Assembly: GCF_003231495.1 (NCBI RefSeq)
Contig: NZ_PQWO01000006.1
Span: 30,001 to 62,000, forward strand
Source of the DNA: Acaryochloris thomasi RCC1774
Lineage (GTDB): Bacteria; Cyanobacteriota; Cyanobacteriia; Thermosynechococcales; Thermosynechococcaceae
Length of the DNA: 32,000 nt
Direction: 5' to 3'
Every line of letters begins with the position of its first letter. The stretch's first letter is position 1. The notes beneath the pieces were generated by a model that was not told where the DNA came from, did no database searches, and saw only the letters and a list, made by a program, of their open reading frames with translations. Both the position numbers and the translations under genes were made by a program. Shown one piece after another: positions 3,712-22,683 of this stretch.

Positions 3712-3722
3712 TGAATTCTTGT

Positions 3723-4116: not shown

Positions 4117-7100
4117 TTAGTTCTTTCTAAAATTGGAGTCAAGTTGCTCTAGTTGCAGAAGCAAGAGTGTTTCTGCGTCGGCCTCTGATAATTTATTCAA
4201 GCTGGTGGAGTACAGATTTGTCGAGGCCGGCTTAACAGATGAGTCGGCAGGGAATATTTGGTGCATTAAATATTCTGTCAGCAACGGAAGTGTAGGGTAA
4301 TCATAGAGAATCGTTGAAGAAAGCGAACAGCTAAGTGCAGTCTGTAGGCGATTCCTGAATTCGACTGTGGTTAGAGAGTCTAGCCCCAGGTCTGTAAAAC
4401 CAGTTTCAGGATCGTTTAAGGCAGAGGCATCACGCCCCAGCAGTCGGGCCACTTCAGAACGTAAATACTGAAATAGTAAGGACTTGCGATCGCAAGCTCC
4501 TCGAAGGGCCTCCAGCCAATCAGCAGGTTGCTTGACCGCTAGTTCCGACCAAAAGTCAGACATCCCGGTCGGAACGGTCCACTGAGATTGATGAATGGGC
4601 AGAACGCCAGCCTGTGCCCATGATTGCCGTAGCAGATGATCGAGAACAGCCAAACCGATTTGTGGCTCAATGCGATCCATTCCCTGAAAACCAGCATTGA
4701 TATGATTTGCCAAGCCTAGCTGCTCCCACGGTCCCCAATTGATTGAGAGCGCAGGTAATCCGGCGCTTTGACGAGCCTGAGCAAGGGTATCGAGGGCGGC
4801 GTTGGCGGCGGCATAATTCGCCTGTCCTGCTGAACCTAGTAAAGAGGCGGCAGAGGAGAAGAGAACGAAAAAATCTAGATCAAGATCGGCGGTGAGTTGG
4901 TGAAGTGTCCAGGCTCCATTCACTTTTGCCTTCAAGACTGATTCAAATTCCTCCCAGTTTAGGGTTTGAAGCATTCCGTCATCTAAAATACCTGCGGCAT
5001 GAATAATGCCTCTCAGTGGAGGCGTCGCTTGGGGGTGGCTATTGTTCACATGCGTCTTTGGTGCAACGTTTGTGCTATTCACTTTCGATGCGGTGGCGCG
5101 ATGGTAGGGATCCAGTAATCGGGTGACATCATTTCGCTGAGAGATATCGGCCTGCATGACCTGTACCTGTACCCCCGACTTCTCTAGCTGGAGAATCTGC
5201 GTTTGCGCTTTGGGAGAGGGCGATCGCCGTCCGACTAAAATGAGATGCCTTGCACCCTGATCTGCTAGCCACTGTGCAACGAGCAACCCTAAGTCTCCTA
5301 AACCACCCGTAATCAGCACGGACCCCGTTGCAAGTTGGGCTAATGGATTTTTTGATTGTTTAGGAACTACCGGAGTGGCGGCTTGCTCCACCACCACTTT
5401 GCCGATGTGTTTCGCCTGCTGCATGTAGCGAAAAGCATTCACCACCTTCGCTGCCGAGAAGCTTTTGTAGGGTAGTGGCTTCAGCTCACCCGCTTGAAAC
5501 TGCTCCATCACTGCTTTGATAAGCGATTGCACCTGCTCTGGTTCTTTCTCCATTGTTTGCATTAAATCAACGATGGAATAGGTGAGATGAGGCCAGTTTT
5601 TGCAAACGTTTTTAGGTTTCCAGATGCCCTGTTTGCCAATTTCTAGAAAATGGTCGCTGGTGATCGACAGGCTGTGGGGGATGAATTTGCCCGTTAACGA
5701 GTTGAGGGTTATCGTAACGCCCTCTTTTCCCGTGATGGCCTGAATCTCTTCGGCAAAGTCTAGGGTGCGTGAGTTGAAAATGTGTTGGATGCCTTGCGAT
5801 CTCAACCATTCCCACTTCCCCTCCGAAGCCGTGGCAAAAATTTCGGCTCCCGCTTGTTGGGCAATCTGCACTGCAGCCTGACCCACGCCGCCTGCCGCTG
5901 AATGGATCAAGATGCGGTCGTTCGGTCCAATCTTGGCCAGATGATTGAGCGCATAGTGAGCCGTCATGAACGCGACGGGAATTGTGGCAGCTTCTGCGTA
6001 GCTGAGTGATGTGGGTTTAGGGGCGAAGATAGAGGTGGTGGCGTGTTGAGAAAAAGCTGGAGTCGCTATGGCAACCACCGAATCCCCAATCTGGTGGCCG
6101 CTCACTCCAGCTCCGATGGCTATGATATCTCCCGCACATTCCAACCCCAGCGGTCCTGGATTACCAGGATAGAGATCGAGTACATTCAAGACATCTCGGA
6201 AATTTAGCCCCGTTGCCCTTACCCGAATTTCAACCTCACCTGCCTGCGGTCGGCGTCGAGTTTGAGGCTGCCAGCGAAGATTCTCAAGGGTGCCGCGCTC
6301 AGGGATGACGAGCTGACTTGAGACAGATGCCTGAAGCGTTTGTTTCTGTTGGCGATGGGCTGACTCAACGGTCACCGGAGCTAGTCGAGCCACAAATCGC
6401 TGATCGCCTCGCAAAGCCACCTGTACCTCTGGTTCCGATATAAGAATTTCAGACCAGAGAGCCTGATGCTCATCCACAGTGGGCTGAGGGGCCAAGTCGA
6501 TCACAGCCGCAGGGAACTCAGGATGCTCCAGCATTAGTGTCTTCGTCAATCCCCACAGTGGAGCCTGACTGAGAGCAGAGCAATCAAGGCGTTCATCATT
6601 CACTCGCTGGGTACCCCGCGTCACTAGCCAGAGTCGAGAGGGTGCCTGCAGTAACCTCTGGATCAGATGGAGAGCCGAGCCACAATTTTGCTGTATTGTT
6701 GCGCTGATTGCTGCATCGTCTTTTTCTGCATTAACGGCATCTAAACTCCAAAGATGAATGACGCCTTGCAAGGTCAGCGGCAAAGATTGCAACGTCTCTA
6801 ACAAATGGCGCAGCGCCTGTGGATCTTGTGGGTCAAGCTGATGTACTGAGCCACTCTCTTGAGGATCTGGACTCACAAGGATCACATGCTGTTGCCGCTG
6901 CGCGAGTTGGTGGGCAAGCCGCTGACCGACACCCCCTTGATCGGCAAAGATCAGCCATTGCCCTGGCTCCATTACAGTCGGCTCAAGCTGGCCGGACTGC
7001 TCTCGCCAATCCACCTGATATAGCCAGTTTTGCCAAGCTTGCGGCTCCATTCCCAACACCGCTTGGAGATTTGTTCTCTTTGCCGTTAGCCCCGTGACCG

Positions 7101-10100
7101 TAGCGACTCGTTGACCATCAGGACGGTACAGCATCAGATCGGCGGTAACCGTCTCAGCGACGGAATGCAATTGAACATGGCTCCACAGGCAATCGCTGGC
7201 AGGACAGTGGAGGGTTAGAGAATCGAGTCCAATGGGCAACAGCGTTGATGTATCCGACTCCGGTAGGGCTGCAAAAATGGCTTGACAGCAAGCATCTAGC
7301 AGCACGGGATGTAGGCAATAGTTCGAGGCTGACAGTGCTGTCGGAAGCTGGACTTTCGCTAGGGCTGCACTGGGTTTGATCCACAATTTCGTAATGGCTT
7401 GGAACTGTGGTCCGTAATTGAGGCTACGGGTTTGACAAGCCTGATAGTGACTGCTGACCGCCCGCTCCTGCGGGAACTGACGACGTAAATCTTCTAAGTC
7501 GATGACGGGTTCAGAGAGGGGAGTCGTCTGAGAGATACTGCCTGTACAGTGCCTTTGCCACGCGGCGTCTGCACGGGAATTCTGGCTAAAGATCTCAAAG
7601 GTTAATCCTGTCTCTGTTTGCTGCAGGATCGTCTGCACGTTGACAGTGCCAATCAACGGTAGGGCTTGCTCCATCGCAACCGTTTGTACCGTTAGAGGCA
7701 GATCTAAGTTAGGAGATTCTACTCCTGCTGCTAACGCAATTTCTAGGAATGCAGCGCCTGGAAAGATAGCGGTAGTATTAACTTGATGATCCTGTAAGTA
7801 GCTGGACTGCTCAGGTGAAATCTGTGCCTGATACAAAATTTGCTGTAGCGGGGTTGAAATTTTCTGCCCCAGCAACGGATGCCTCGCAGTTGTTCGTAAA
7901 AGAGCCTGGGCTGGCGGTGGATCGAGCCAATATCGCTGCCGCTGAAAGGGATAGGTGGGAAGTGAAACCCGATAATGTTCAAAGCCCTGATCTACGTTTT
8001 CCCAATTGATTGCAACGCCCCGAATGTAGAGCTGGCCGAGACTGTGCAGAATTGTTTCCCAGTCGTTCTTTTGGAAGCAAAGACTGGGGAGGTATAGAGC
8101 GTCAGAGTTCAGATCTGAATTGTGGGGTTTCTCAAGGAGCGCTCGCCCCATGCCTAGCAGCGTAGGCTTGGGGCCGCATTCGAGATAGATGTTGTGCCCT
8201 GACTGGGTCAGGGTTTTCATGCTAGCGGCGAACTGAACGGGTTGCTGAATATGGCGACACCAGTAGATTGGAGTTGAGATCGCATCCCCAATCCTTTTTC
8301 CCGTGAGATTCGAAATTAATTCAATTTGTGGCGGGTGATAGGTGATCTGCTGAGCGATCTGTTCAAATTCCGCTAGTACTGGCTCCATCAACGGCGAATG
8401 AAACCCGTGAGAAACATTGAGGCAGGTTGTCTTAATCCCCTGGGCTGTGAGTTTTTCTGCAACCTGTTCTACTGCAGTTCGCTCACCCGACAGCACCAAA
8501 CTCTCTGGGCCGTTGACGGCTGCGATGGCTAGTGGCCTACCTTCGGTAATTGCAACTTCAGAACGTTCGTGATCGAGGAACTGATTCACCGTGGCTTCAT
8601 CAGCCACGACTGAAACCATGCCGCCATTAGCAGGCAGCGCCTGCATTAAGCGTCCCCTAGCGGCCACCAGCTTTAAGGCATCCTCTAGACTGAAGACGCC
8701 AGCCACGCAGGCCGCCACGTATTCACCAATGCTGTGCCCCATTACGGCGGTGGGTTGAATCCCCCAGGACTGCCAAAGCTGAGAGAGAGCATACTCTAGA
8801 GCAAACAGTGCAGGCTGTGTGTAGGCCGTTTGATCGAGGAGAGACTTTGGTGTTTCCTCTTCTTGTACCTCGAGAGGTGTTTCGGGGTAGAGAAGATCCA
8901 GTAGTGGTCTCTCCAGCAGCGGTCGGAGAATTGTGTTGCAATCTTCTAAAGCCTGACGGAAGACCGGCTGAGTCTCGTAGAGGTCTCGCCCCATGTCGAG
9001 ATATTGCGAGCCTTGACCCGTGAACAGAAAGGCAATTTTGGCTGAAGTATTTTTTGGGGAGACTTTCCCCTGGTAAAGGTTGCTGGCTTGAGGGTTTGAC
9101 AGCCAGTCTTCCAACTTTGTTGTTAGATCGACTAGGGAAGAAGTTGCGAGAGTCTCCGACTGGTCTACGATCAACGCAACCCGCCATTCAAAATGTGCCC
9201 GCCCCACATTGCGTGTAAAACAAACATCCCCTAACGACAGCTCTGGATGATTACGAAAATCGTCAACTGACCTTTGGGCTAACTCTTTTAACGCTTGCTC
9301 TGTTTTGGCGGATAGCGTAAATAGATGCACCGGTCGCTCAATCGTCGGCGATCGCTGAGTAACAGGAACCTCTTCCAAAATGGCGTGGACGTTGCTACCG
9401 CCAATCCCTAGAGAGTTTATCCCCGCCCGACGCGGCGCAGACCTCTCCGGCCAGTCTCTCAGTTTGGTATTCACGAAGAAGGGGCTGTGCTCAAAATCAA
9501 TGCGTGGGTTAGGGGTCTCAAAGTGAAGGCTGGGGGGGATTTTTTGACGCTGAACGGCAAGCGTTGTTTTGATAAATCCCACAATCCCAGAGGCAATATT
9601 TAGGTGGCCCACGTTGGTCTTGACGGAACCGATGGCGCAAAATTGCCGCTGCTGGGTACTGAACGCTCGGGTCAACGCAGAGATCTCAATCGGGTCGCCC
9701 AACTCGGTTCCGGTCCCGTGGGCTTCGACGTAGCCAATGGATGCAGGTGCAACCTCTGCCACTGCCATTGCTTCTGCCGCAACCACCGTTTGCCCTTCGG
9801 CTTGGGGGGCGAGGTAGCCCATCTTTTGTCCCCCGTCATTGCCGAGGGCAGAGCCTTTGATGACGGCGTAGATATTGTCGCGAGATGCGATCGCATCTTC
9901 CAGCTTCTTCAGCACCACCAGCCCCGCGCCACTGCCGAACAACGTTCCCTGTGCCTGAGCATCAAAGGCGCGACAGTGACCATCTGGCGATAGAATCATT
10001 CCCTCCTGATAGAGATGTCCCATCTTCTGCGGCGCATGAACCGATACGCCCCCCGCCAAAGCCATATCACATTCACCATTGAGCAGACTCTGGCTCGCCA

Positions 10101-12732: not shown

Positions 12733-12905
12733 GGTCTACTTTACTGCGATAATCCTGCTCGGACTGTCGTGGAATGGCCTGTAGAGTCGTAAAGATCTCT
12801 GAGCTGAGGTTTTGCCGACAACACCGGACCCAATGTAACCTGCTGGATGGTGCTGACGATAGATTGAGCGAACCCGTTGCTTTCTTTTCCACTGGGAACA
12901 GAGCT

Positions 12906-12919
12906 GCTTTATATAAAGC
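12906..12919. promoter_or_regulatory. Perfect 14-bp palindrome in the divergent PKS control region (candidate operator or -10-like element)
   Basis: GCTTTATATAAAGC equals its own reverse complement. It lies about 175-185 nt upstream of the PKS1 start codon. Its function is not established. Confidence 0.2.
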
Positions 12920-13408
12920 TCGGACGCTGCCGTCGATGCTTGAGTTCATTCTTTTCGTGAAAGCGCTTGATAATTTGCCTTTAACCTTGACAGAGCATCG
13001 CCATTTTAGAAGAATGACGGTAGTTTGCTCCTGCTTGTAGGCTATCCAAACTCCCGAGGCAGATTTTCCCTCGCTGCGGTTTGCTGACAGAGTCTTCTAC
13101 CCACTTGGTGACTAGAATCATTGTGATGAGTGATGGGAATCATCATGATGTCAACAATAGTTTGTCAAAATAAGCTCAAGGGGTGAGTAAAAATCTGAGT
13201 TGCTAGATGTTTTGCCAACAATTAAGTCCCTTGGCTTGTCCAATTTAATCGAGCGAAGTTCTACTTCTCGAGGAGTCTAAAAAGTGCGCTATTGTCCTAT
13301 TATTCTGCGGCCAATGTTTCTTTTGAGACTTGCAAGCTGTTCTCAATAAACATATTTGGGGAACTTATACTAAGCAAGCAATGACACTAATATATGTCTA
13401 TTGTCCTC

Positions 13409-14754: not shown

Positions 14755-17700
14755 ATGACCCTGGACTCCATTGCGATTGTTGGCATCGGTTGTAAATTTC
14801 CGGGGGCGGAAGGGCCGCAAGCATTTTGGAAGCTTCTGCGCGATGGGGTAGATGCGATTACCGACATCCCTAACTCTCGGTGGGACGCTGATCGGTTCTA
14901 TGATCCAGACCCCGGCGCGCCTAATAAAGCGAATACCCGCTGGGGAGGCTTCTTGGAGGGCATTGATCGCTTCGACCCTCAGTTTTTTGGCATTGCCCCC
15001 CGCGAAGTCGCCAGTATGGATCCGCAGCAGCGACTGCTGCTGGAGGTCACCTGGGAAGCCCTGGAAGATGCGGGGCAAATTCCCGAACATCTCCGAGGAT
15101 CTAGGACCGGGGTATTCATTGGGGTCGGGACTCACGATTACTCCATCATGATGTGGCAGGATCCGGTGAATGATCCCTACGCCACGACGGGGACGGGCAA
15201 CTGTATTGCGGCCAATCGAATTTCCTATGTTTACGACCTAAAGGGCCCTAGTTTAGCGATTGATACGGCCTGCTCATCGTCTCTGGTAGCAGTGCATTTG
15301 GCCTGTCAGAGCATCTGGACGGGAGAGTCGAGTCAGGCGCTGGCGGGGGGCGTGAATGTCCTGCTGTTGCCCACCGTGACGGCGGGATTCTCAAAGGGGG
15401 GCTTTATGGCCCCTGATGGTCGCTGTAAGAGCTTTGATGCTAAGGCCGATGGCTACGTTCGCAGTGAAGGGGCGGGGATTGTGCTTCTGAAGCCGCTGGC
15501 CCAAGCGCAGGCAGATGGTGACCCGGTCTATGCGGTGATCAAGGGAAGTGCCGTCAATCAGGATGGATTTAGTAACGGGATGGCGGCTCCAAATCCCAAG
15601 GCGCAGGCAGTGGTGTTGCGTCAGGCATACCAGCAGGCAGGCGTGTCGCCGGGGCAGGTGCAGTACGTCGAGGCCCACGGCACGGGCACTAAGATTGGTG
15701 ACCCGGTGGAAATGGAGGCTCTGGGCGAGGTGCTGGTTGAGGGACGATCGGCAGGGGATGAATGTGCGATCGCATCGGTCAAAACCAACATTGGCCATGC
15801 CGAAACGGCAGCGGGCATCGCCGGATTAATTAAAGCTGCACTCTGTATAAAAGAGCGGAAACTCCCGGCAAACCTACATTTTGAGACCCCCAACCCCGCC
15901 ATCGACTTTGAGCATCTTCCCTTCTATGTACAAAAAACGCTCACCCCTTGGCCCACAACAGCACCGGCCCTAGCGGGCGTCAATTCCTTTGGCTTTGGTG
16001 GCACTAATGCCCATGTCGTCGTCGCGGAGGCTCCCGGAAAAACAGCAGCAGCACCGGCTGCATTACAAGCCCATCACGTTTTTACCTGCTCGGCAAAAAA
16101 TAAAGCGGCCCTCAACGATCTGGCGCAACACTATCTAAACTTTTTAGCACAGCAGTCTGATCTTGATCTCAATGATTTGTGTGGAACTGCCAATCTACGA
16201 CGGACAAGCTTCTCGCATCGATTTGCGATCGCAGCCGACTCACTCACGCAGCTGCAAGACTTCCTCTCGGATTTTCTGGCTGGCGAAGATCATTCCAATA
16301 TTCATAAAAGCATCGCTAGTCAGGATTTGACGCTCGCTTTCCTGTTCACAGGCCAAGGATCTCAGTACGAAGGCATGGGGCAAGCGCTTTATGAGACGCA
16401 GCCCGTCTTCCGAGATGTGCTGGATCGGTGCGACAAAGTCCTACGCTCTGAGCTAGAGATTCCACTACTCGACGTTCTCTATCCATCCCAGAAAAGCGAG
16501 GATTCTCCTTTAAACCAAACGGCTTATACTCAGCCCGCGCTGTTTGCTATTGAGTACGCGCTTTACCAGCTTTGGCAATCTTGGGGCATCCATCCCGCTG
16601 CCGTTACCGGGCACAGCGTTGGTGAATACGTCGCCGCCTGCGTTGCGGGGGTCTTCAGTCTTGAAGATGGTTTGAGGCTGATTGCCGCGCGAGGACGGTT
16701 GATGCAGGTATTGCCGAGCGGCGGTGCCATGGTGGCGGTGGCGGCGAGTGAATCACAGATTAAGGATCTTCTGCCTGCTGCTGTGACGATTGCTGCTATC
16801 AATGGGCCGCAAAGCTTGGTGTTGTCTGGGGAGGGAGATGCGATCGCAACTCTAACCCAAGCCCTGATCGATGCAGGCTTCAAAACCGACGTACTTCAGG
16901 TCTCCCACGCTTTTCACTCAGCGCTGATGGAGCCGATGCTAGATGAATTTAAACAGATTGCCCAGCAAGTCACCTATCACACGCCCCAAATTCCGCTGGT
17001 GTCGAATCTAACGGGTGCGTTGGTCACCGACGAAATCGCCACGCCTGACTACTGGTGTCGCCACGTTCGAGAGCCAGTCCGGTTCCAAGCCGGTATGGAA
17101 ACTCTGTACCAGTTAGGATATCGCACCTTTGTAGAAATGGGGCCAAAGCCAATCCTCTGCGGCATGGGTCATAATTGCCTGCCTCGGCCCGAAAATAATT
17201 GGCTACCGAGCTTGAGGCTCGGACACCCCGCTCAGCTTTGGCGCAGTGTGGGACAGCTTTATACCCTGGGTGCCTCAGTTGATTGGTCCCAGCTTTATCC
17301 CAGCTATCAATATGTTCATCTGCCGACCTACCCCTTTCAGCGGCAGCGTTTTTGGTGGGACGTTGCGGAGCTGCCGGGGATGCGATTACCGAAGGTAGGC
17401 CAGGGGCCATCGCAACCTTGGTCTCTCAATGGTCATACTTCCAAGGCTCATCCCCTATTGGGCGCAAGGCTGCATTTAGCCGGTTCTGCTGAGATCAGAT
17501 TTCAGGCTCTAATCAGTGCTGAGAGTCCAGCCTATCTGAGCGATCATTGTTTGCTGGATCAAGTTGTCCTCCCTGCTACTGCTTATATTGAGATGGCGTT
17601 GGCTGCGGCACGGCAGCTCTATGATCACGATGCGCTCATCCTGGAATCATTCACCATTGAGCAACCTTTATTACTGACTGAGGCTTGCACGCTGCAGTGC

Positions 17701-20700
17701 GTCTTTATCCCTGATCAATGTGCGTATCAGCTAGAGATTTTCAGTCTAGGTATTGGGGAAGAAACATCCCCCGTGCTTCGTCATGCAACGGGCCGTATTC
17801 ATAGCAAGAAAAGCAGCACGGCTACCCAAGATATTGAAGTATTACAGGCACTACCGCTTTCCCCGATTGAAGTTGGAGACCATTATCATGATCTCCAAAA
17901 ACGGGGACTGAATTATGGTCCTTGTTTTCGGGGTATTCAAAAACTGTGGGCAGAAGAGGGACAGGCCCTAAGCCAGATTGCTTTACCGGAAGGCGTGACA
18001 GATGAAGATCGTTACCAAATTCACCCTGCTTTACTAGATGCCTGCTTGCAGACGCTGGGAGCGGTGTTTACGGAAAGCGAAACGTACTTGCCTGTGGGTT
18101 GCGATCGCATCCATCTCTATCATCCCCCCGGTAAAGACATCTGGTGCCACGCCCTGCTTCAACCCGGTGAGGACTCTGCCGCGTTCCGAAAGGCTAACCT
18201 ACAGTTGATGGACGATGCAGGCGCGATCTTCGCGGAACTGATTGACTTCAAGCTCCAGGCCGTCAGCCCTGCTGTATTACGACGATTGGTGAAGCAGGCA
18301 GACCCGCTCGACCACTGGCTCTATGAACCGATTTGGCAACTGCAGCCCCTCGCAGAAGTTACCGAACAGTCTGAGCCTCATCAATGGTTGATTTTTGCAG
18401 ATCGACAGGGATATGCAAAGCAAATTGCCCATCACCTAGAGGAAAAAGGCGATCTCTGTACTTTTGTTTATCTCTCTTCTAGTGCATCAATATCGCCAGC
18501 TGGCTATACCGTTGATCCTGCTCAGCCCCAAGACTTTCTGCAACTCTGGCAAGAGTTACTCCAAAAAGAGCAGCGTCCTGACCAAATTCTCCATCTATGG
18601 AGTTTAGATAGTGGTGATTTAGAGCAGGTTGCAGATGACCTTCAACAGAATCAGCTGCAAAGCTGTGGATCTGTTTTGCATTGGGTGCAGGCGATCGCAT
18701 CTGAGACCTCGCCACCTAAGCTATGGCTGATGACTGCTGGGGCACAGGCGATCACTGACCAACTGGAAGCCCCCCAACAGGCACCGTTATGGGGGCTAGG
18801 TCGGGTGATTCGTCTAGAGCAGTCAGGGATGAACTGTGTCTGTGTGGACTTGGATGCTGAGCCGTCGGAGGAGACTTTAGAGGCTCTCGTTCAAAATTTG
18901 CGACAGCCCGACGATGAGAATCAGGTGGCGTTTCGAGGTTGCGATCGCTACGGTGCCCGCCTCGTCCCCAGAACCTCCAAGACTGTCTCCCAGCGTCCAG
19001 ACGGAGCCTTTCGACTGGGGCTGACAGAATATGGAGTTTTAGATCATCTCTCTTTACTGCCTGCGGAGCGTCATCCCTTGGCATCCTCTGATGTTGAAAT
19101 TGAGGTGTGTGCTTCTGGAATTAACTTCCGCGATGTCCTCAACGCCCTCGGAATGCTGAAGCCCACCCTTGAAAAAATGGGTTTTGCCCAAGCAACAGAG
19201 GTTCCTTTCGGTGGAGAGTGTTCTGGAAAAGTTATCGCAGTGGGTTCTGAAGTTGAAAATCTGAAGATTGGTGATCAGGTCATTGCGGCTCAGGCCGTTG
19301 GCAGCTTGGGGCAATTCGTCACCGTCGATGCCCGGTTTGTGATCCCCAAACCAGAAAAAATTAGCTTTGCCGAAGCCGCGACCCTTCCCACCACCTTTTT
19401 GACCGCTTACTACGGTCTTTGTCACTTGGCTGGGATTAAGAAGGGAGAGCGCATCCTCATTCACTCTGCAGCAGGCGGCGTGGGTCAAGCTGCCGTTCAA
19501 CTTGCTCAGCAAGTCGGGGCCGAAATCTACGCCACCGCCAGTCCCGGCAAATGGCAGTTCCTCAAAGAGACGGGCATTCAGCATGTCATGAACTCCCGCA
19601 CCCTAGCATTTGCCGATCAGCTCATGGAACTCACCAACGGGAAGGGGGTTGATATTGTCTTCAATAGCCTCAACGGAGACTTTATTCCCAAAAGTATAGA
19701 GACCCTGGCCCCCCAAGGCCGCTTTGTTGAAATTGGCAAAATCGGCATTTGGAATGCTGAGCAAGTGACCCAACTCCGCTCAGATGCAAGCTATTATCCC
19801 TTTGATTTACTCGAAGTCTCTCAGCAAGATCCGGTCCTCATCGCCACGATGCTGACCCAGTTGCTGAGTCAGTTTGAAGCGGGTTCTCTCACACCACTCC
19901 CACACAAAGTTTTCCCCATCGAAAAAGCAGCCGATGCCTTCCGCTACATGGCCCAGGCTAAACATATCGGTAAAGTCGTTGTCACCCTGGATGAACACAA
20001 TCCGCCTGGTATCCGAGCAGATGGAGCCTACTTGATTACAGGCGGGTTGGGCGGGTTGGGGCTAGAAGTGGCTCACTGGCTCGTCGAGCAGGGGGCAAAG
20101 CATTTGGTGTTGGTCAGTCGGAGATCGCCTGCCCCCAAAGCACAGGAGCAGATTCAAGCCATAGAGAAAACCGGAGTGCAGGTCCAAGTGGTGCAAGCTG
20201 ATATCTCGCGGCGAGAAGACGTTACTCGATTGCTAGCTCCGTATGATTATGCGGCTGCACCTGCGCCATTTGATAGCTCAAACGTTGCACTGGCCCCCCT
20301 AGCCCCCCAATCCTGGGGGAAAAGAAGACAAAAGCTCGATATCTCCCGAGAATTAAAAAATCGAGAGAGTCGAGACGTTACGAAGCAGCCTCAATCAGAT
20401 ATCCATCAAGAGACATCCCCATCTTCAGGTACTCTCCCCCCAGAATTGGGGGGCTGGGGGGGGCAACGCAGCACCAAACAGTCCAAGTCCAATCGTTCCC
20501 TAGACAATAAACCACTCCTAAAAGGAATCTTCCACGCCGCAGGTACCCTAGATGACGGAATGCTCCAAACCCTAAACTGGGAGCAGTTCTCCACTGTAGC
20601 AGCCCCAAAAATCATGGGAACCTGGCATCTCCATGAGTTTACTCAAAATCTAGAACTCGATCACTTCGTTTGCTTCTCTTCAATGACATCGCTGCTTGGC

Positions 20701-22683
20701 TCCCCCGGCCAGGGCAACTACGCCGCCGCCAACGCTTTTATGGATGCCTTGATGTACCTGCGCCACGCCCAGGGACTTCCTGGGCTCAGCATCAACTGGG
20801 GACCGTGGGGCAAGGCCGGTATGGCCGCGCAGCTTTCCGCCATTGATCAGCAGCGCATGACCGATCAGGGTATTGAAGCGATTCTGCCGGACCAAGGGCT
20901 ACAGATTTTAGAGGGGCTGTTAACCCAGACATCCGCTCAGATCGGCGTGCTACCGATTGATTGGTCGAAGTTTATTCCTCAATTGCCAGAGGCGGCGGCG
21001 GTACCGTTTTTAGAGCAAGTTCGCCCGACGCTGGAACAGAAAGGACCATCGGAGCTGATGCAGCAGTTGATGGGGGCTGAGAGTTGCGATCGCATCTCCA
21101 CCATCCAAAACCACCTTCGCAGCCAGTTAGCTAAAGTCCTTGGCTACAGCTCCATGGACCTGATCGAACCCCAAGATAATTTTGCTGACCTCGGCATGGA
21201 CTCCCTGATGGCGGTCGAGTTCAACAACCGACTCCAGGCCAGCTTCAACCGCACCATTTCTCAAACGACCCTCTTTGATTACCCCACGGTCGAGTCCCTC
21301 GCAGACTATCTCAATCAAGATCTGTTGCTTGGGGATAATGTTCAGGCTCTGTCCGAAACGTCGCTCCCGACAGAATCTTCTGCTTTGACAGATACTGCAA
21401 AGGCTACGTCCGATATCATTCAGTCCTCAAAACCGGTCAAGACTGAGCCAGAACCCTCCCCCCATCTAGAAAATATCCCCCTACCTGATATCCCCGATCA
21501 GTTCTACCAGTTTCATAAATCCCCGGAATATCTCAATCTTCGGCAAGATTTAGATCGCGTTGAAGAACTAGGGAACCCGTTTTTTGAGGTCCATGAAGGG
21601 ACGGCCCGCGACAAAACCCAAATTGGAGGCCAAGAGCTGCTCAGCTATGCCAGCTATAACTACCTGGGCCTCTCAGGCGATCCCAGAATTATCGAAGCCA
21701 CAGAAGCCGCCATTCGCCAGTATGGAACATCAGTGTCAGCCAGCCGAGTCGTCGCTGGAGAACGCCCCATCCATCGGCAGCTAGAGCAAGAGATTGCTAA
21801 TTTTTTAGGCACTGGAGACAGCATTGTCTTTGTCGGGGGACACGCCACCAACGTCACCACCATCGGGCATTTATTCCGTGAAAAAGATCTGATTCTTTGT
21901 GATGCCCTGAGTCACAATAGCATCCGGGAGGGCTGTCAGCTTTCAGGGGCAACGGTGATTGAATTTCCGCACAACGATCGCAACGCTCTAGAGCAGCTTT
22001 TGCAAGACCATCGACAGTCCTATGAAAAGGTACTGATCGCCGTTGAGGGCGTCTACAGTACCGATGGCGACTTGGCTCCGTTACCCGAGATGGTGACCCT
22101 CAAGCAGAAGTTCAAAACCTTTTTGCTCGTGGATGAGGCTCACTCCATCGGCACCTTGGGCGCAACCGGACGCGGAGTCGGTGAACACTTCGGCATTGCA
22201 GCTGAAGATGTCGATCTATGGATGGGGACACTCAGTAAATCTTTCGCGAGCTGTGGCGGCTATATTGCAGGTCGCAAAGAGCTGGTGGAATATCTCAAGT
22301 ACACCTCTCCGGGCTTTGTGTTCAGTGTCGGCATATCCCCGGCGAATACAGCGGCAGCATTAAAAGCGATTCAGGTGTTAAAAGAGGAGCCCGAGCGGGT
22401 TGTGCAGCTCCGAGAGCGGTCGGCTCTATTTTTGCAGCTTGCTCAAGAGATGAAGTTGAATACAGGGGCAAGCCATGATTCTCCTGTGATTCCGATTATT
22501 GTAGGTGAACCCTATAGGGCGGTTCAGCTATCGCGGTTGCTCCTCCAATGCGGAATTAACGCACAACCGATGGTGTTCCCATCGGTGCCTTATAATTCTG
22601 CGCGGGTCAGGTTCTTTGTCACTTCTCTACACTCTGACGAGCAGATTGAAGCGACTGTGGTTGCGATCGCAAGTAGCCTCTAG
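14755..22683 (+). CDS. Type I PKS, module 2 with fused off-loading domain: KS, AT, DH, ER, KR, ACP, alpha-oxoamine synthase (AOS, PLP-dependent)
   Basis: An uninterrupted 2642-aa ORF with an in-frame TAG 9 nt upstream of the ATG. KS: DTACSSSLVA (Cys173), EAHGTGT, KTNIGHA. AT: FLFTGQGSQY, GHSVGE (Ser621), HAFH. DH: LSDHCLLDQVVLP, LLDACLQ. ER: LIHSAAGGVGQAAVQLAQ. KR: ITGGLGGLG, HAAGTLDDG, NYAAANA. ACP: LGMDSLM (Ser2150). AOS: YNYLGL, GGHATN, LVDEAHS, GTLSKSF (Lys2495). Confidence 0.95.
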   Translation: MTLDSIAIVGIGCKFPGAEGPQAFWKLLRDGVDAITDIPNSRWDADRFYDPDPGAPNKANTRWGGFLEGIDRFDPQFFGIAPREVASMDPQQRLLLEVTWEALEDAGQIPEHLRGSRTGVFIGVGTHDYSIMMWQDPVNDPYATTGTGNCIAANRISYVYDLKGPSLAIDTACSSSLVAVHLACQSIWTGESSQALAGGVNVLLLPTVTAGFSKGGFMAPDGRCKSFDAKADGYVRSEGAGIVLLKPLAQAQADGDPVYAVIKGSAVNQDGFSNGMAAPNPKAQAVVLRQAYQQAGVSPGQVQYVEAHGTGTKIGDPVEMEALGEVLVEGRSAGDECAIASVKTNIGHAETAAGIAGLIKAALCIKERKLPANLHFETPNPAIDFEHLPFYVQKTLTPWPTTAPALAGVNSFGFGGTNAHVVVAEAPGKTAAAPAALQAHHVFTCSAKNKAALNDLAQHYLNFLAQQSDLDLNDLCGTANLRRTSFSHRFAIAADSLTQLQDFLSDFLAGEDHSNIHKSIASQDLTLAFLFTGQGSQYEGMGQALYETQPVFRDVLDRCDKVLRSELEIPLLDVLYPSQKSEDSPLNQTAYTQPALFAIEYALYQLWQSWGIHPAAVTGHSVGEYVAACVAGVFSLEDGLRLIAARGRLMQVLPSGGAMVAVAASESQIKDLLPAAVTIAAINGPQSLVLSGEGDAIATLTQALIDAGFKTDVLQVSHAFHSALMEPMLDEFKQIAQQVTYHTPQIPLVSNLTGALVTDEIATPDYWCRHVREPVRFQAGMETLYQLGYRTFVEMGPKPILCGMGHNCLPRPENNWLPSLRLGHPAQLWRSVGQLYTLGASVDWSQLYPSYQYVHLPTYPFQRQRFWWDVAELPGMRLPKVGQGPSQPWSLNGHTSKAHPLLGARLHLAGSAEIRFQALISAESPAYLSDHCLLDQVVLPATAYIEMALAAARQLYDHDALILESFTIEQPLLLTEACTLQCVFIPDQCAYQLEIFSLGIGEETSPVLRHATGRIHSKKSSTATQDIEVLQALPLSPIEVGDHYHDLQKRGLNYGPCFRGIQKLWAEEGQALSQIALPEGVTDEDRYQIHPALLDACLQTLGAVFTESETYLPVGCDRIHLYHPPGKDIWCHALLQPGEDSAAFRKANLQLMDDAGAIFAELIDFKLQAVSPAVLRRLVKQADPLDHWLYEPIWQLQPLAEVTEQSEPHQWLIFADRQGYAKQIAHHLEEKGDLCTFVYLSSSASISPAGYTVDPAQPQDFLQLWQELLQKEQRPDQILHLWSLDSGDLEQVADDLQQNQLQSCGSVLHWVQAIASETSPPKLWLMTAGAQAITDQLEAPQQAPLWGLGRVIRLEQSGMNCVCVDLDAEPSEETLEALVQNLRQPDDENQVAFRGCDRYGARLVPRTSKTVSQRPDGAFRLGLTEYGVLDHLSLLPAERHPLASSDVEIEVCASGINFRDVLNALGMLKPTLEKMGFAQATEVPFGGECSGKVIAVGSEVENLKIGDQVIAAQAVGSLGQFVTVDARFVIPKPEKISFAEAATLPTTFLTAYYGLCHLAGIKKGERILIHSAAGGVGQAAVQLAQQVGAEIYATASPGKWQFLKETGIQHVMNSRTLAFADQLMELTNGKGVDIVFNSLNGDFIPKSIETLAPQGRFVEIGKIGIWNAEQVTQLRSDASYYPFDLLEVSQQDPVLIATMLTQLLSQFEAGSLTPLPHKVFPIEKAADAFRYMAQAKHIGKVVVTLDEHNPPGIRADGAYLITGGLGGLGLEVAHWLVEQGAKHLVLVSRRSPAPKAQEQIQAIEKTGVQVQVVQADISRREDVTRLLAPYDYAAAPAPFDSSNVALAPLAPQSWGKRRQKLDISRELKNRESRDVTKQPQSDIHQETSPSSGTLPPELGGWGGQRSTKQSKSNRSLDNKPLLKGIFHAAGTLDDGMLQTLNWEQFSTVAAPKIMGTWHLHEFTQNLELDHFVCFSSMTSLLGSPGQGNYAAANAFMDALMYLRHAQGLPGLSINWGPWGKAGMAAQLSAIDQQRMTDQGIEAILPDQGLQILEGLLTQTSAQIGVLPIDWSKFIPQLPEAAAVPFLEQVRPTLEQKGPSELMQQLMGAESCDRISTIQNHLRSQLAKVLGYSSMDLIEPQDNFADLGMDSLMAVEFNNRLQASFNRTISQTTLFDYPTVESLADYLNQDLLLGDNVQALSETSLPTESSALTDTAKATSDIIQSSKPVKTEPEPSPHLENIPLPDIPDQFYQFHKSPEYLNLRQDLDRVEELGNPFFEVHEGTARDKTQIGGQELLSYASYNYLGLSGDPRIIEATEAAIRQYGTSVSASRVVAGERPIHRQLEQEIANFLGTGDSIVFVGGHATNVTTIGHLFREKDLILCDALSHNSIREGCQLSGATVIEFPHNDRNALEQLLQDHRQSYEKVLIAVEGVYSTDGDLAPLPEMVTLKQKFKTFLLVDEAHSIGTLGATGRGVGEHFGIAAEDVDLWMGTLSKSFASCGGYIAGRKELVEYLKYTSPGFVFSVGISPANTAAALKAIQVLKEEPERVVQLRERSALFLQLAQEMKLNTGASHDSPVIPIIVGEPYRAVQLSRLLLQCGINAQPMVFPSVPYNSARVRFFVTSLHSDEQIEATVVAIASSL
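14770..16032 (+). other. PKS2 domain: ketosynthase (KS)
   Basis: It starts at residue 6 (IAIVGIGCKFPGA). Cys173 is encoded at 15271-15273 and the domain ends at GGTNAHVVVAE. Confidence 0.9.
16330..17169 (+). other. PKS2 domain: acyltransferase (AT), malonyl-type HAFH motif
   Basis: It has FLFTGQGSQY, GHSVGE (Ser621 at 16615-16617) and VSHAFHS. Confidence 0.85.
17443..18270 (+). other. PKS2 domain: dehydratase (DH)
   Basis: It has HPLLGARL, His931 at 17545-17547 in LSDHCLLDQVVLPATAY, YGPCFRG and LLDACLQ. Confidence 0.8.
19033..19989 (+). other. PKS2 domain: enoylreductase (ER)
   Basis: It has DVEIEVCASGINFRDV, LIHSAAGGVGQAAVQLAQ, and ends at KHIGKVVVTL. Confidence 0.85.
20023..20829 (+). 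other. PKS2 domain: ketoreductase (KR), B-type, interrupted by a long hydrophilic insertion
   Basis: It has YLITGGLGGLG, HAAGTLDDG and GNYAAANA (Tyr1989 at 20719-20721). There are 100 residues between the LL of DVTRLL and HAAG, against 38 in PKS1 and about 15-20 in the typical KRs I recall. Confidence 0.8.
20283..20468. repeat. G/C-run inverted-repeat element (MITE-like or palindromic) lying in frame inside the PKS2 KR domain
   Basis: The left core AGCCCCCCAATCCTGGGGG (20301-20319) compares with the reverse complement of 20436-20455, AGCCCCCCAATTCTGGGGGG; they differ at one position and by one extra terminal G. Complementarity continues imperfectly through C6-C8 runs and CGTTG out to 20283 and 20468. 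The arms flank 116 bp of A-rich sequence. Confidence 0.6.
21103..21318 (+). other. PKS2 domain: ACP
   Basis: The sequence is NFADLGMDSLMAVEFNNRL, with Ser2150 encoded at 21202-21204. Confidence 0.85.
21499..22680 (+). other. PKS2 domain: alpha-oxoamine synthase (class II aminotransferase fold; BioF/KBL/SPT/CqsA family)
   Basis: It has SYASYNYLGLSGDP, VGGHATNVTTIG, DALSHNSIREG, LLVDEAHSIG and MGTLSKSFASCGGY, with the PLP Lys2495 encoded at 22237-22239. A linker of about 60 aa rich in Ser/Thr/Pro/Glu joins it to the ACP. Confidence 0.85.

Follow-up and report, generated by a model that had tools for sequence, protein, structure and literature searches.

Organization of the locus

The stretch of DNA analysed, hereafter the window, comprises 32,000 nucleotides of Acaryochloris thomasi RCC1774 (NZ_PQWO01000006.1, positions 30,001-62,000 of the forward strand), and all coordinates are positions in the window. 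Two large PKS genes diverge from a spacer of 760 bp, and the forward-strand PKS gene is preceded, at a distance of 92 bp, by a gene for an HMGL-like protein.

4117..12732, minus strand: PKS1, 2871 aa, A-PCP loading didomain then KS-AT-DH-ER-KR-ACP (ORF, Pfam domains, module alignment)
12733..13492, no strand: divergent promoter spacer, 760 bp (promoter scan, alignments to relatives)
13493..14662, plus strand: predicted HMGL-like 2-alkylmalate synthase, 389 aa, of an HphA-derived 'PKS-type' clade (Pfam HMGL-like)
14755..22683, plus strand: PKS2, 2642 aa, KS-AT-DH-ER-KR-ACP-AOS (ORF, Pfam domains, module alignment)

This layout had been described in a previous reading of the sequence alone, and its coordinates were exact when checked against the ORFs. 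Pfam searches returned AMP-binding, PP-binding, KS, AT, DH, ER, KR and PP-binding for PKS1 and KS, AT, DH, ER, KR, PP-binding and Aminotran_1_2 for PKS2, reproducing the domain order of the sequence-only reading except for its FAAL label of the ligase. The catalytic signatures it had listed were all intact in both PKSs as revealed by motif reading, and domain and motif searches found neither degenerate domains nor a terminus other than an α-oxoamine synthase (AOS). As it had also stated, Pfam searches of PKS1 and PKS2 gave no match to a TE, a reductase or a condensation domain. Judged from these domains, the three genes should form an intact small assembly line expected to make an amino-ketone.

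The promoter scan of the spacer revealed a TTGAAT-16-TAGAAT site at positions 13409-13436 that, with several upstream boxes, is kept in relatives (aligned with L006, L004 and L007). The spacer (12733..13492) gave zero Rfam matches, and no short ORF within it was judged credible.

The loading didomain of PKS1

11038..12654, minus strand: adenylation domain (aa ~27-565), McyG/StsA type (PDB matches, three-way alignment, pocket residues)
10753..10968, minus strand: PCP-type carrier (aa 589-660), LGGTSL (PP-binding match; aligns with McyG PCP motif LGGHSI)

The adenylation domain scored 515 bits against the structure of McyG (PDB 4R0M) and 470 and 457 bits against those of the keto-acid loader StsA (6ULW and 6ULX), whereas FAAL structures scored 133-197 bits; the match to malonyl-CoA synthetase was weak at 104 bits. 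The pattern was reversed for genuine cyanobacterial FAALs, which scored 545-674 bits with 7R7E, a cyanobacterial PKS entry presumed to be the FAAL domain of a PKS, 415-477 bits with the FAAL 3KXW and just 132-140 bits with McyG. In a three-way alignment with the loader, the FAALs of Trichodesmium and Spirulina showed a 23-aa insertion after YGMAE and the sequence HDMGL. The loader has a gap in place of the FAAL-specific insertion (~20 residues, from the A5 region to the hinge) and lacks the HDMGL-type substrate-entrance motif, reading PLEHVASLV at that site, comparable to PLDHVGAIV in McyG and PLDHIGGIV in StsA. The best NCBIfam matches of the ligase were a long-chain fatty-acid ligase (265 bits, cutoff 572) and a FAAL (259 bits, cutoff 600), both less than half of the cutoff. 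Identity as a FAAL is ruled out by the missing insertion and motif and by scores for McyG and StsA that are 2.5-4 times those for any FAAL structure. Thus, the FAAL-type ligase of the sequence-only reading lacks both defining features of a FAAL and has McyG and StsA as its nearest solved relatives, and the free fatty acid starter proposed with it was not borne out, the loader grouping in the McyG/StsA clade. The result cautions that an AMP-binding domain ahead of a PKS should not be equated with a FAAL in annotation.

Adenylation domains of the McyG/StsA type have a hydrophobic residue in place of the α-amino-binding Asp235, G-M in place of G-P in A5, and a PCP that follows (PMC11253843). The loader has V244 at the position of McyG V227 and StsA I306, GYGMTE aligned with StsA G414-M415, and the PCP motif LGGTSL. 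Of its 120 best relatives, 15 are A-KR loading modules, the keto-acid architecture. By these features the PKS1 loader is a predicted member of the McyG/StsA-type clade that activates arylalkyl, 2-oxo and 2-hydroxy acids, an assignment of type only. The McyG didomain, which activates phenylpropanoids and truncates C-1 (PMC11209926), is the closest structural relative and aligns end to end; the two have in common the Trp, the motifs GMTE and PCP, and a Val where Asp235 would stand, and each lies ahead of a KS-AT module. The two differ in the pocket, V/A/A/F in McyG versus G/G/G/Y in the window family, and McyG feeds an NRPS-PKS line making Adda, not a line ending in AOS (PMC11253843, PMC11209926). 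The loader pocket, VAVW-G-G-GY-SG, is the same in 46 of 47 orthologues at an overall identity of ~50%, the one change being V to I at the first position. The three Gly residues standing where McyG has V/A/A imply a larger pocket, although pocket-size arguments are weak predictors. An aliphatic chain could just as well be accommodated in a tunnel opened by these residues, making a fatty or branched acid starter possible, a point against the pathway proposed below.

The extension modules

9517..10674, minus strand: KS1 (aa 687-1072), Cys in QTACS, HGTGT, NVGH (Pfam, motifs, module alignment)
8119..9030, minus strand: AT1 (aa 1235-1538), GHSIG, HGFH, QTAYTQPALFA, malonate type (Pfam, motifs, alignment)
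7069..7881, minus strand: DH1 (aa 1618-1888), HPLLG, LLDACCQ (Pfam, alignment)
5386..6309, minus strand: ER1 (aa 2142-2449), AAGGVGQAA (Pfam, NCBIfam, motifs)
4723..5319, minus strand: KR1 (aa 2472-2670), GGLGDLG, LDD, YAAAN (Pfam, motifs)
4258..4458, minus strand: ACP1 (aa 2759-2825), LGLDSL (Pfam, motifs, alignment)
14767..15885, plus strand: KS2 (aa 5-377), DTACS, HGTGT, NIGH (Pfam, motifs)
16339..17172, plus strand: AT2 (aa 529-806), GHSVG, HAFH, QTAYTQPALFA, malonate type (Pfam, motifs)
17449..18279, plus strand: DH2 (aa 899-1175), HPLLG, LLDACLQ (Pfam, alignment)
19024..19986, plus strand: ER2 (aa 1424-1744), AAGGVGQAA (Pfam, NCBIfam, motifs)
20032..20811, plus strand: KR2 (aa 1760-2019), GGLGGLG, LDD, YAAAN (Pfam, motifs, alignment)
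21115..21312, plus strand: ACP2 (aa 2121-2186), LGMDSL (Pfam, alignment)

Each module contains the KS Cys-His-His triad, AT GHSxG, DH HxxxG and Asp, the ER NADPH site, the KR Tyr and NADPH site and the ACP Ser. On the basis of these residues both modules are predicted as fully reducing and malonate-specific, in agreement with the saturated C2 unit that the earlier reading had assigned to each. Module alignment revealed a 17-aa insertion in KS1 relative to KS2; KR2 carries a low-complexity loop insertion of ~60 aa, and ACP1 is followed by a C-terminal tail of ~45 aa that is a possible docking region. Both modules gave their top NCBIfam scores against iterative MAS/Pks2-type synthases, and the chain length is therefore not fixed at Cn+4. 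The fully reducing C2 modules behind that earlier estimate stand, yet the estimate presumes no iteration.

In many relatives (e.g. L003, L014, L017 and L090) PKS2 lies colinear behind PKS1. A hand-over of the chain from PKS1 to PKS2 is probable on two grounds, this colinearity and the lack of a release domain on PKS1. No N-terminal docking region is present on PKS2, KS2 beginning 5 aa past the Met, an observation that counts against the pathway proposed below.

The terminal AOS domain

21535..22671, plus strand: AOS domain (aa 2261-2639), PLP lysine in TLSKSF, DEAHS, SHNS (Pfam, NCBIfam, PDB, loop comparison)

The C-terminal domain of PKS2 matched Aminotran_1_2 with 158 bits, and TLSKSF, SHNS and DEAHS, which hold the PLP Lys, the stacking His and the pyridine-N Asp, aligned with ThAOS and serine palmitoyltransferase (SPT), confirming the terminal AOS named in the sequence-only reading. 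Scores against structures were 237 bits for ThAOS (7POA) and 233 bits for SPT (3A2B). The NCBIfam scores were all below cutoff: bioF 355 (cutoff 426), SPT (CFB) 315 (640), KBL 298 (460) and CqsA-type 178 (428). The domain has Ser at the position of ThAOS V79, as do SPT and BioF, unlike KBL (PMC11906848). Since this Ser is shared with both SPT and BioF and all curated cutoffs were missed, no specific amino acid was assigned. An ACP-AOS protein of Trichodesmium, encoded beside a FAAL, has exactly the substrate loop of this domain, YGTSVSASR, and one of Xenococcaceae has nearly the same; no homologation genes are found near either gene. The shared loop therefore favours an ordinary small amino acid as the AOS substrate, with the homologated acid going to the loader. 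A TE-less line that ends in AOS is most naturally read as releasing a 2-amino-3-ketone, as had been proposed earlier.

The HMGL-like protein

The HMGL-like protein has the catalytic core residues R14, D15, H213 and H215 and reads RDGVQ in place of RDGEQ, the window clade having V or I at the Glu position; this replacement may speak against the pathway proposed below. It scored 199 bits with nifV (cutoff 463) and at most 181 bits with LeuA models (cutoffs 484-748). In the alignment the His and Arg of homocitrate synthase (HCS) correspond to S73 and S152, and the Asn and Glu of isopropylmalate synthase (IPMS) to F181 and S237. IPMS, homocitrate synthase and citramalate synthase (LeuA, NifV, CimA) were rejected as identities, the scores being below cutoffs and the substrate-binding residues replaced. 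Thus, of the IPMS/homocitrate-synthase-like gene described earlier, the Claisen-type family and the 92-bp spacing were upheld, but the protein belongs to the HphA-like family with LeuA and NifV far below cutoff.

The active-site set of HphA, a benzylmalate synthase that is the gatekeeping enzyme in the homologation of amino acids, is A73, D157, A159, M186 and S242 (PMC12961565). The specificity positions in the window protein read S73/S152/A154/F181/S237 against A/D/A/M/S in HphA, whereas the majority in the PKS-type clade is S, C, A, L and S and NRPS-linked relatives from the same search have A, D/E, A, M/V/I and S. The PKS-type proteins form one NJ clade of 65+3 sequences nested inside the HphA-like family, with key positions S73, C/S152, G235 and W265 where HphA has A73, D157 and Met. 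By its residues, the HMGL-like protein is a predicted relative of HphA, not HphA itself. The HphA/HphB/HphCD system, which homologates phenylalanine and tyrosine (PMC12961565), is alike in identity (55-60%), fold, catalytic residues and partner enzymes. In the PKS-type clade the gatekeeper A73 is replaced by Ser, D157 by Cys or Ser and sometimes by Tyr or Trp, and the Met near S242 by Gly, and the context is PKS-AOS rather than NRPS.

Distribution of the cluster family

Orthologues of PKS1 and of the HMGL-like gene are adjacent and divergent in 47 of 85 related loci from many genera, indicating that the arrangement is not due to chance. The HMGL-like gene is probably part of the chemistry, since it is tightly and widely linked to PKS1. 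In about 10 loci a PKS-type HMGL-like gene lacks any PKS neighbour within 10 kb, and the link is thus not obligatory, a further point against the proposed pathway. The position of PKS2-AOS varies among the related loci. An HphCD-like aconitase is encoded in 29 loci and an HphB-like dehydrogenase (Iso_dh) in 13; Iso_dh directly follows the AOS in L026, L074, L088 and L089 and overlaps the AOS stop codon in L088. This placement beside the AOS, not the loader, fits amino-acid supply equally well. Neither an aconitase nor an Iso_dh gene is present in the window, where the proposed pathway would depend on LeuCD/LeuB. No conserved aminotransferase gene was found in the related clusters. Elainella (L001) clusters PKS1, the HMGL-like gene, a methyltransferase and an aconitase, with PKS2 not within 10 kb, and the Spirulina cluster L026 combines a genuine FAAL, the full homologation trio and PKS-AOS. 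Genes beside the AOS gene in related clusters encode an ABC exporter, a MAPEG protein and an outer-membrane protein resembling PagL.

The family has dozens of members in Leptolyngbya-like, pleurocapsalean, chroococcalean and Thermosynechococcaceae-type cyanobacteria. In the searchable literature the three-gene architecture matched no characterised cluster, consistent with the earlier view that the pathway is not a characterised cyanobacterial one, and the synteny comparison proposed with that view showed that the same design recurs. The locus belongs to a widespread, apparently uncharacterised family of cyanobacterial clusters.

Proposed pathway and alternatives

In the pathway proposed from these comparisons, the prospects of which we judge to be about even, a homologated bulky 2-oxo acid would be loaded, extended by two modules and released by the AOS as an α-amino ketone. 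The HMGL-like synthase would condense acetyl-CoA with a bulky 2-oxo acid, and its partners, housekeeping LeuCD/LeuB in this genome and clustered HphCD-like and HphB-like enzymes in many relatives, would yield a 2-oxo acid one carbon longer. The loader would activate the homologated acid and transfer it to the PCP, either intact or, as is reported for McyG, after C-1 has been lost; each module would add a single fully reduced C2 unit, or several in the event of iteration. In a decarboxylative condensation with a common small amino acid of the serine, alanine or glycine type, the AOS would then release the ACP-bound acyl group as starter-(CH2)4-CO-CH(NH2)-R, an α-amino ketone whose tail is unusual. 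The PagL-like, MAPEG and ABC-exporter neighbours in related clusters hint at a product in the cell envelope. These neighbours suggest a lipid, for which a long aliphatic chain fits better than a short aryl tail.

A wider reading, put forward tentatively and with considerable doubt, is that many cyanobacteria share an undescribed pathway in which an HphA-derived set makes a bulky non-proteinogenic acid that is loaded directly by a McyG/StsA-type domain, at least four methylenes are added, and the fused AOS gives a sphingoid-like amino-ketone with an aryl or branched tail that the PagL-like, MAPEG and ABC proteins insert into, or export across, the envelope. If true, this would be a new class of lipid or signal for the phylum.

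Alternatively, homologation might supply the amino acid, a possibility considered rather unlikely: a 2-oxo acid would be lengthened by the HMGL-like enzyme together with aconitase and Iso_dh and transaminated (e.g. to 2-aminobutyrate as in CqsA, or to a homo-amino acid) and condensed by the AOS with the PKS chain. The position of Iso_dh directly behind the AOS in L026, L074, L088 and L089 is consistent with this supply, as are the amino acids made by the HphA/B/CD trio in NRPS clusters (PMC12961565), the acceptance of 2-aminobutyrate by engineered ThAOS V79S, with Ser as in the window AOS (PMC11906848), and the genuine FAAL alongside the full trio and PKS-AOS in Spirulina. However, the identical AOS loop occurs in an ACP-AOS with a FAAL partner and no homologation genes nearby, and the small pocket residues of the synthase (S73, A154, G235) imply a large substrate, whereas small amino acids would suit the Ser of the AOS. 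Moreover, the HMGL-like gene is tied to PKS1 and the loader in 47 loci while PKS2-AOS varies in location, and the related clusters have no conserved aminotransferase gene.

The model of the sequence-only reading, in which a Cn fatty acid is loaded and extended to a saturated Cn+4 chain, giving a base resembling 3-ketosphinganine or a 1-deoxysphingoid base with the IPMS-like gene peripheral, appears improbable. It draws on the long-chain fatty-acid ligase and FAAL models as best NCBIfam matches, on a Gly-rich loader pocket that could fit an alkyl chain, on neighbours in relatives that suggest a membrane lipid, on the FAAL and ACP-AOS pairs of Trichodesmium and others, and on the proven PKS-made sphinganine of Pseudomonas (PMC12134224). 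Set against these are the sub-half-cutoff ligase scores, the missing FAAL insertion and HDMGL motif, the far higher McyG and StsA scores and the many A-KR keto-acid loaders among the relatives; the model also leaves a gene conserved beside PKS1 in 47 loci with no role.

It is very improbable that the HMGL-like enzyme acts in release or branching, using the PKS1 acyl thioester as Claisen donor onto a 2-oxo acid to form an alkylmalate- or alkylcitrate-type acid for processing by aconitase and Iso_dh, with PKS2-AOS working on a separate chain. The absence of a release domain on PKS1 and of a docking region on PKS2, the Elainella cluster and the constant adjacency to PKS1 where the two are paired (47 loci) would suit such a role, but PKS2 colinear after PKS1 in many relatives points to direct hand-over, and HphA-type proteins, with which the enzyme shares 55-60% identity, take acetyl-CoA as donor. 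To our knowledge, no enzyme of the IPMS/HCS family uses a long acyl-ACP donor, which also counts against this role. A PKS-type biotin route, from a C3 dicarboxylate starter through two extensions to pimeloyl-ACP and, with a BioF-like domain and alanine, to 8-amino-7-oxononanoate, is hardly credible: bioF as the top NCBIfam match of the AOS, two fully reducing C2 extensions paralleling BioC/BioH logic and the L001 methyltransferase are outweighed by a bioF score under cutoff with SPT and ThAOS equal or better against PDB, the weak malonyl-CoA synthetase likeness of the loader, the replacement of the HCS distal-carboxylate residues His and Arg by Ser and Cys/Ser, and a patchy, BGC-like distribution unlike that of a vitamin pathway.

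Relation to known systems

Release of a PKS chain by AOS is already established by SgaAB, RedL, SxtA and Fum1/Fum8; new here is that a McyG-type loader and a partner derived from HphA accompany it. Assembly lines seldom end in such a release, which was linked to the making of sphingolipids in bacteria only recently. RedL extends a fatty acid starter with a single non-reducing module and yields a pyrroline precursor, the chain being released by decarboxylative condensation with an amino acid. RedL/RphL-type prodiginine synthases, among which Streptomyces griseoviridis B6VRQ8 is listed as A-ACP-KS-AT-ACP-AOS (PMC3870968), likewise join an adenylation-carrier loader, PKS extension and a C-terminal fused AOS in one line; the window differs in that its two modules are fully reducing and its loader belongs to another clade.

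Bacterial PKS-made sphingoid bases are established, PfSgaAB of Pseudomonas fluorescens MYb115 showing that bacterial PKS-AOS pairs can produce them with a fully reducing type I PKS chain, release by AOS and an amino acid, and no thioesterase (PMC12134224). That proteobacterial system has a single iterative PKS without an adenylation loader (SgaA), a free-standing AOS (SgaB) and no homologation gene, whereas the window divides its two modules between two proteins, has a fused AOS, a McyG-type A-PCP loader and a partner derived from HphA, and is thus not of the SgaAB type. Sphingolipids are reported from two cyanobacteria, the general capacity and enzymes in the phylum still being unclear (PMC8895605), and these reports correct the earlier statement that sphingoid-type lipids are not part of the standard cyanobacterial repertoire. 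Identification of the product would give a function to dozens of orphan clusters, test a PKS route to sphingoid-like amines in cyanobacteria (PMC8895605) and offer biocatalysis a carrier-dependent AOS as well as a homologation enzyme that acts on a new range of substrates (PMC12961565, PMC11906848).

SxtA of saxitoxin biosynthesis (MT-GNAT-ACP-AOS; PMC11906848), the one well-studied cyanobacterial assembly-line protein with a terminal AOS, also joins an ACP-bound acyl group to an amino acid, but with a short acyl group and arginine and without KS/AT modules, an A domain or a homologation enzyme. In the fungal Fum1 and Fum8, sphingofungin and myriocin pathways (PMC7711896, PMC13612406), an AOS similarly joins the chain made by a highly reducing PKS to a small amino acid, and the resulting lipid is an amino-ketone or amino-alcohol; these pathways differ in having eukaryotic iterative PKSs, a separate AOS and no adenylation loader. 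In Rhodobacteria, SPT works with its own ACP and an acyl-ACP synthetase (PMC9386255), a system that resembles the window in that the acyl donor of the AOS is a dedicated carrier charged by an adenylating enzyme. Both this system and the cyanobacterial ACP-AOS systems differ in having a true fatty-acid ligase and no PKS extension modules. The FAAL and ACP-AOS pairs of Trichodesmium, Okeania and others likewise have a carrier-fed AOS, and the ACP-AOS is ~62% identical to the AOS domain of the window.

Gene layout and catalytic domains

The ORF table reproduced exactly the coordinates that the sequence-only reading had assigned to the two PKS genes, the 389-aa gene and the intervals between them:

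4117..12732, minus strand, PKS1, 2871-aa ORF
12733..13492, spacer of 760 bp between PKS1 and the HMGL-like gene
13493..14662, plus strand, HMGL-like gene, 389-aa ORF, with a 92-bp gap before PKS2
14755..22683, plus strand, PKS2, 2642-aa ORF

Pfam returned the domain order AMP-binding, PP-binding, KS, AT, DH, ER, KR, PP-binding for PKS1 and KS, AT, DH, ER, KR, PP-binding, Aminotran_1_2 for PKS2, the last being the α-oxoamine synthase (AOS) domain, and assigned the middle 389-aa protein to HMGL-like. No thioesterase, terminal reductase or condensation domain was found by Pfam in the three proteins, as the earlier reading had stated. The catalytic residues, read by motif searches and pairwise alignment of the PKS1 and PKS2 modules, were intact throughout both modules. 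The KS cysteine lies in QTACS (KS1) and DTACS (KS2), each followed by HGTGT and N[VI]GH; AT1 contains GHSIG and HGFH, AT2 contains GHSVG and HAFH, and both carry the malonate-type signature QTAYTQPALFA. Both DH domains have HPLLG and LLDACxQ, the ER motif is AAGGVGQAA and the KR motifs are GGLGxLG, LDD and YAAAN. The carrier serines lie within LGGTSL, LGLDSL and LGMDSL, and the PLP lysine of the AOS within TLSKSF. The three-gene feature is real and intact, and the domain orders and catalytic signatures read from the sequence were borne out except for the label of fatty acyl-AMP ligase (FAAL) given to the loading domain.

The KS of PKS2 begins 5 residues from the protein start, thus PKS2 is without an N-terminal docking region. 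The C-terminus of PKS1 extends as a tail of ~45 residues beyond the ACP. A low-complexity, charged, Ser/Pro-rich insertion of ~60 aa is located just ahead of the LDD loop of KR2 (window 20287-20505; PKS2 aa about 1845-1917), and the KR of PKS1 has a shorter insertion at the matching position.

The loading domain of PKS1

The best match of PKS1 residues 1-661 to solved structures was the McyG A-PCP didomain (4R0M; 515 bits, nearly end to end), followed by the StsA domain that selects α-ketoisocaproate (6ULW/6ULX; 470/457 bits), whereas FAAL structures gave only 133-197 bits. Two genuine cyanobacterial FAALs, a 614-aa Trichodesmium erythraeum protein adjoining an ACP-AOS gene and a 617-aa protein from a related Spirulina cluster, served as controls and showed the reverse pattern, with 545-674 bits to 7R7E (a cyanobacterial PKS entry which we take to be a PKS FAAL domain), 415-477 to FAAL 3KXW and 132-140 to McyG. 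A three-way alignment revealed a 23-residue FAAL-specific insertion and an HDMGL motif in both controls, whereas the PKS1 loader has a gap at the insertion and PLEHVASLV in place of HDMGL, resembling PLDHVGAIV of McyG and PLDHIGGIV of StsA. The loader also scored less than half the cutoffs of the NCBIfam FAAL and long-chain ligase models. Among the best 120 database relatives of the didomain, 15 were loading modules with the A-KR architecture of keto-acid loaders and one was labelled McyG. Judged by these comparisons, the PKS1 ligase is not a FAAL, and that part of the sequence-only reading does not hold.

The pocket residues described for McyG and StsA (PMC11253843) were mapped onto the loader alignment, giving V-A-V-W-G-G-G(Y)-S-G for the window versus V-G-V-W-V-A-A(F)-S-G for McyG, which implies that the starter pocket of the loader would be larger than that of McyG. 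The string was identical in 46 of 47 orthologues, the exception having one V-to-I change, despite an overall identity of only about 50%, which argues for one common starter throughout the family. For McyG itself, activation of phenylpropanoids and loss of C-1 are reported (PMC11209926).

The HMGL-like synthase

The HMGL-like protein scored far under all LeuA, NifV and CimA cutoffs of NCBIfam. More than 600 cyanobacterial homologues with 55-96% identity were found, many named benzylmalate synthase by JGI, which is HphA, the synthase of the HphA/HphB/HphCD amino-acid homologation set; the closest, 96% identical, is from a marine cyanobacterial MAG. Mutagenesis of HphA identified A73, D157, A159, M186 and S242 as specificity positions (PMC12961565), the equivalents of which were located by alignment to HCS 6KTQ and IPMS 3RMJ. 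Relatives encoded in HphB/HphCD-type operons, several adjoining NRPS-like genes, have A, D/E, A, M/V/I and S, as in true HphA. The PKS-linked proteins have S, C (or S, Y, W), A, L (F in the window) and S, with Gly replacing Met two residues before the last specificity position and Trp replacing Ile at position 265. With S73 and G235 as the typing criterion, the PKS-linked proteins (65+3 sequences) fall into one neighbour-joining clade that is nested within the HphA-like family. Typing by residue 152 alone was rejected, as the clades were not clean, and covariation of this residue (C, S, Y or W) with the loader pocket permitted no inference because the pocket is nearly invariant (46/47).

Two variations within the family were observed. 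The window's sub-clade (window, P0001, P0003, P0005, P0007 and P0008) carries RDG[V/I]Q in place of the RDGEQ found in almost all other members, coinciding with the layout in which the HMGL-like gene is directly upstream of PKS2:

Window 13535-13549, RDG[V/I]Q motif, HMGL-like aa 15-19

In Symploca sp. SIO2E6 (L024 3074-5095; P0100, P0101), a PKS-type HMGL-like protein is fused, in a 673-aa protein, with a domain matching the 2-oxoglutarate dioxygenase families TauD and CsiD.

Conservation among related loci

A tblastn domain map and ORF clustering were applied to 85 related loci, 80 from a scan of species-representative genomes and five added. An orthologous A-PCP-KS-AT-DH-ER-KR-ACP gene, divergent from and directly adjoining the HMGL-like gene, was present in 47 of the 85, from genera including Elainella, Leptolyngbya, Vasconcelosia, Phormidesmis, Thermocoleostomius, Waterburya and Pleurocapsa as well as Thermosynechococcaceae MAGs. 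Culturable carriers include Thermocoleostomius sinensis, Chroococcus sp. FPU101, Leptolyngbya sp. FACHB-8 and Pleurocapsa sp. CCALA 161. The position of PKS2 varies: in L048 and the window's clade it lies downstream of the HMGL-like gene, in L003, L014, L017, L090 and others it is colinear behind PKS1, and in L026 and L074 it is on the far side of the cluster. In 29 of the 85 loci a gene for a fused, permuted aconitase is nearby, and in 13 an isopropylmalate-dehydrogenase-like gene (Iso_dh), as checked with Pfam; with the synthase, they make up the HphA/HphB/HphCD set. The link between the HMGL-like gene and the PKS is strong but not absolute, since about ten loci have a PKS-type HMGL-like gene with no PKS within 10 kb.

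Iso_dh directly follows the AOS in L026, L074, L088 and L089, and a gene for a PagL-like outer-membrane β-barrel follows in L026, L048, L074 and L088, with a MAPEG protein and an ABC exporter added in L088. The PKS2-AOS/Iso_dh/PagL-like sub-operon is located as follows:

L026, 7188-9056
L048, 13953-14909
L074, 15505-17273
L088, 9686-14813

The recurrence of this sub-operon, with the MAPEG protein and ABC exporter in L088, suggests the cell envelope as the place where the product of the family is handled. The window lacks all four genes (Iso_dh, PagL-like, MAPEG, ABC exporter). In L074 the insertion of an IS605 OrfB/TnpB-type transposase (11274-12494) separates the HMGL-like gene from the remaining cluster. 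Leptolyngbya sp. 7M (CP070897) was considered as a natural version of the pathway lacking a PKS and set aside as uninformative, the A-PCP and ACP-AOS being isolated fragments 1.9 Mb apart, each adjoining a Uma2-family gene, in what looks like a cluster broken by rearrangement:

L089, 10001-13514, ACP-AOS fragment and Iso_dh
L091, 10001-12205, McyG-type A-PCP fragment

The AOS domain

The AOS domain matched three structures about equally, ThAOS (7POA) with 237 bits, bacterial SPT (3A2B) with 233 and human SPTLC2 with 230, followed by KBL, BioF and ALAS, with CqsA distant; no NCBIfam equivalog cutoff was reached. Residue V79 of ThAOS limits amino-acid size (PMC11906848), and alignment placed Ser at this position in the window AOS, as in SPT and BioF (cf. 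PMC11906848). The loop YGTSVSASR is identical in the PKS2-AOS domains and a 544-aa ACP-AOS protein of Trichodesmium, and is YGTSACASR in a Xenococcaceae ACP-AOS. The Trichodesmium gene adjoins a true FAAL:

L086, 7749-11635, FAAL (614 aa) then ACP-AOS didomain (544 aa), two-gene cassette of Trichodesmium erythraeum IMS101 (CP000393)

No homologation gene was found near the Trichodesmium or Xenococcaceae ACP-AOS. The (near-)identity of the loop in these proteins is modest evidence that the PKS2 AOS would use an ordinary small amino acid. By design, the Trichodesmium cassette would be a PKS-free route to long-chain amino-ketones; no characterisation of it was found in the literature. Near-identical ACP-AOS proteins are common in Okeania, Dapis, Xenococcaceae and Microcoleaceae. 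A free-standing AOS of Tatlockia sp. (Legionellales; P0227) shares 61% identity with the AOS domain of cyanobacterial PKS2, unusually high for a γ-proteobacterium, which may be the result of horizontal transfer.

Proposed pathway and alternatives

From established family enzymology, the HMGL-like enzyme would condense acetyl-CoA with a 2-oxo acid, each PKS module would add and fully reduce one malonate unit, and the AOS would join a PLP-bound amino acid to the acyl group of the ACP thioester by decarboxylative Claisen condensation. We infer the link between these steps: a bulky 2-oxo acid would be made by the homologation set and would itself serve as substrate for the McyG/StsA-type loader, and loss of C-1 as in McyG may occur here (cf. 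PMC11209926). The clade of the loader, the enlarged synthase and loader pockets, the constant adjacency of PKS1 and the HMGL-like gene and the ordinary-looking AOS pocket argue for this account, to which we give about an even chance. The main alternative, that the homologated acid is transaminated and then supplied to the AOS, draws on the adjacency of AOS and Iso_dh; set against the ordinary-looking AOS pocket, it is unlikely. The sequence-only reading proposed that a FAAL-loaded fatty acid is extended to a saturated Cn+4 chain and released by the AOS as a 2-amino-3-keto lipid. The envelope-related neighbours suggest a lipid and the pocket arguments against this proposal are weak; with a McyG/StsA-type domain in the loading position, it is quite improbable. 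A biotin/pimelate hypothesis was considered and rejected. Both modules resemble iterative MAS/Pks2-type synthases, so in every model the chain may be longer than one C2 unit per module would give.

Relation to known systems

In Pseudomonas fluorescens, an iterative PKS together with a free-standing AOS is known to make sphinganine, and 6,101 homologous clusters were found across diverse bacteria, with Burkholderia as the dominant genus (PMC12134224). Fused AOS domains occur in RedL/RphL-type synthases and SxtA (PMC3870968; PMC11906848), fungi combine an HR-PKS with an AOS for fumonisin-type metabolites (PMC7711896), and proteobacterial SPTs have a dedicated ACP and acyl-ACP synthetase (PMC9386255). 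The release chemistry is of an already known kind. In none of these systems does a McyG-type loader occur together with two split reducing modules, a fused AOS and a partner derived from HphA. The open-access literature yielded no characterised PKS-AOS of cyanobacteria accompanied by an IPMS-like gene, and no paper on the whole combination. New here are the type of loader, the conserved partner from homologation and how widely the family is distributed. Sphingolipids are reported from Scytonema julianum and Moorea producens, and M. producens has a second AOS (571 aa), which the authors describe as untested (PMC8895605). Judging solely by length, we take this protein to be probably one of the ACP-AOS type described here.

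Flanking genes and spacer

The genes flanking the cluster are:

1397-3711, plus strand, tight run of a WrbA-like flavoprotein, a YcaC-like isochorismatase-family hydrolase and a LipP1/HSL-type esterase
3708-4061, minus strand, 117-aa ORF directly downstream of PKS1
22753-23109, minus strand, Rieske-type ferredoxin (118 aa), convergent with PKS2, the stop codon of which is 70 bp away

All five were rejected as cluster members because none is conserved beside the three genes in the closest relatives used for comparison (L004/L005/L073, L006 and L007). An OprB/SLH porin gene precedes the run, which begins at the porin stop codon and is not conserved beside PKS genes elsewhere. The ferredoxin best matched, weakly, the ferredoxin subunits of 3-phenylpropionate/cinnamate and anthranilate dioxygenases. 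The 117-aa ORF matches no family and its sequence is implausible; it is probably not a gene.

An Rfam scan of the whole window gave zero matches, hence no riboswitch was found in the spacer, and the only ORFs within it are short and were not judged credible. Upstream of the HMGL-like gene, a promoter-like site is conserved in L006, L004 and L007, the proteins of which are only 73-87% identical to those of the window:

13409-13436, TTGAAT-16-TAGAAT promoter-like site

Within window 13290-13492 boxes such as GGGAAC, AATGACAC(T) and CTCAAT are conserved in the same three loci and are possible regulator sites.
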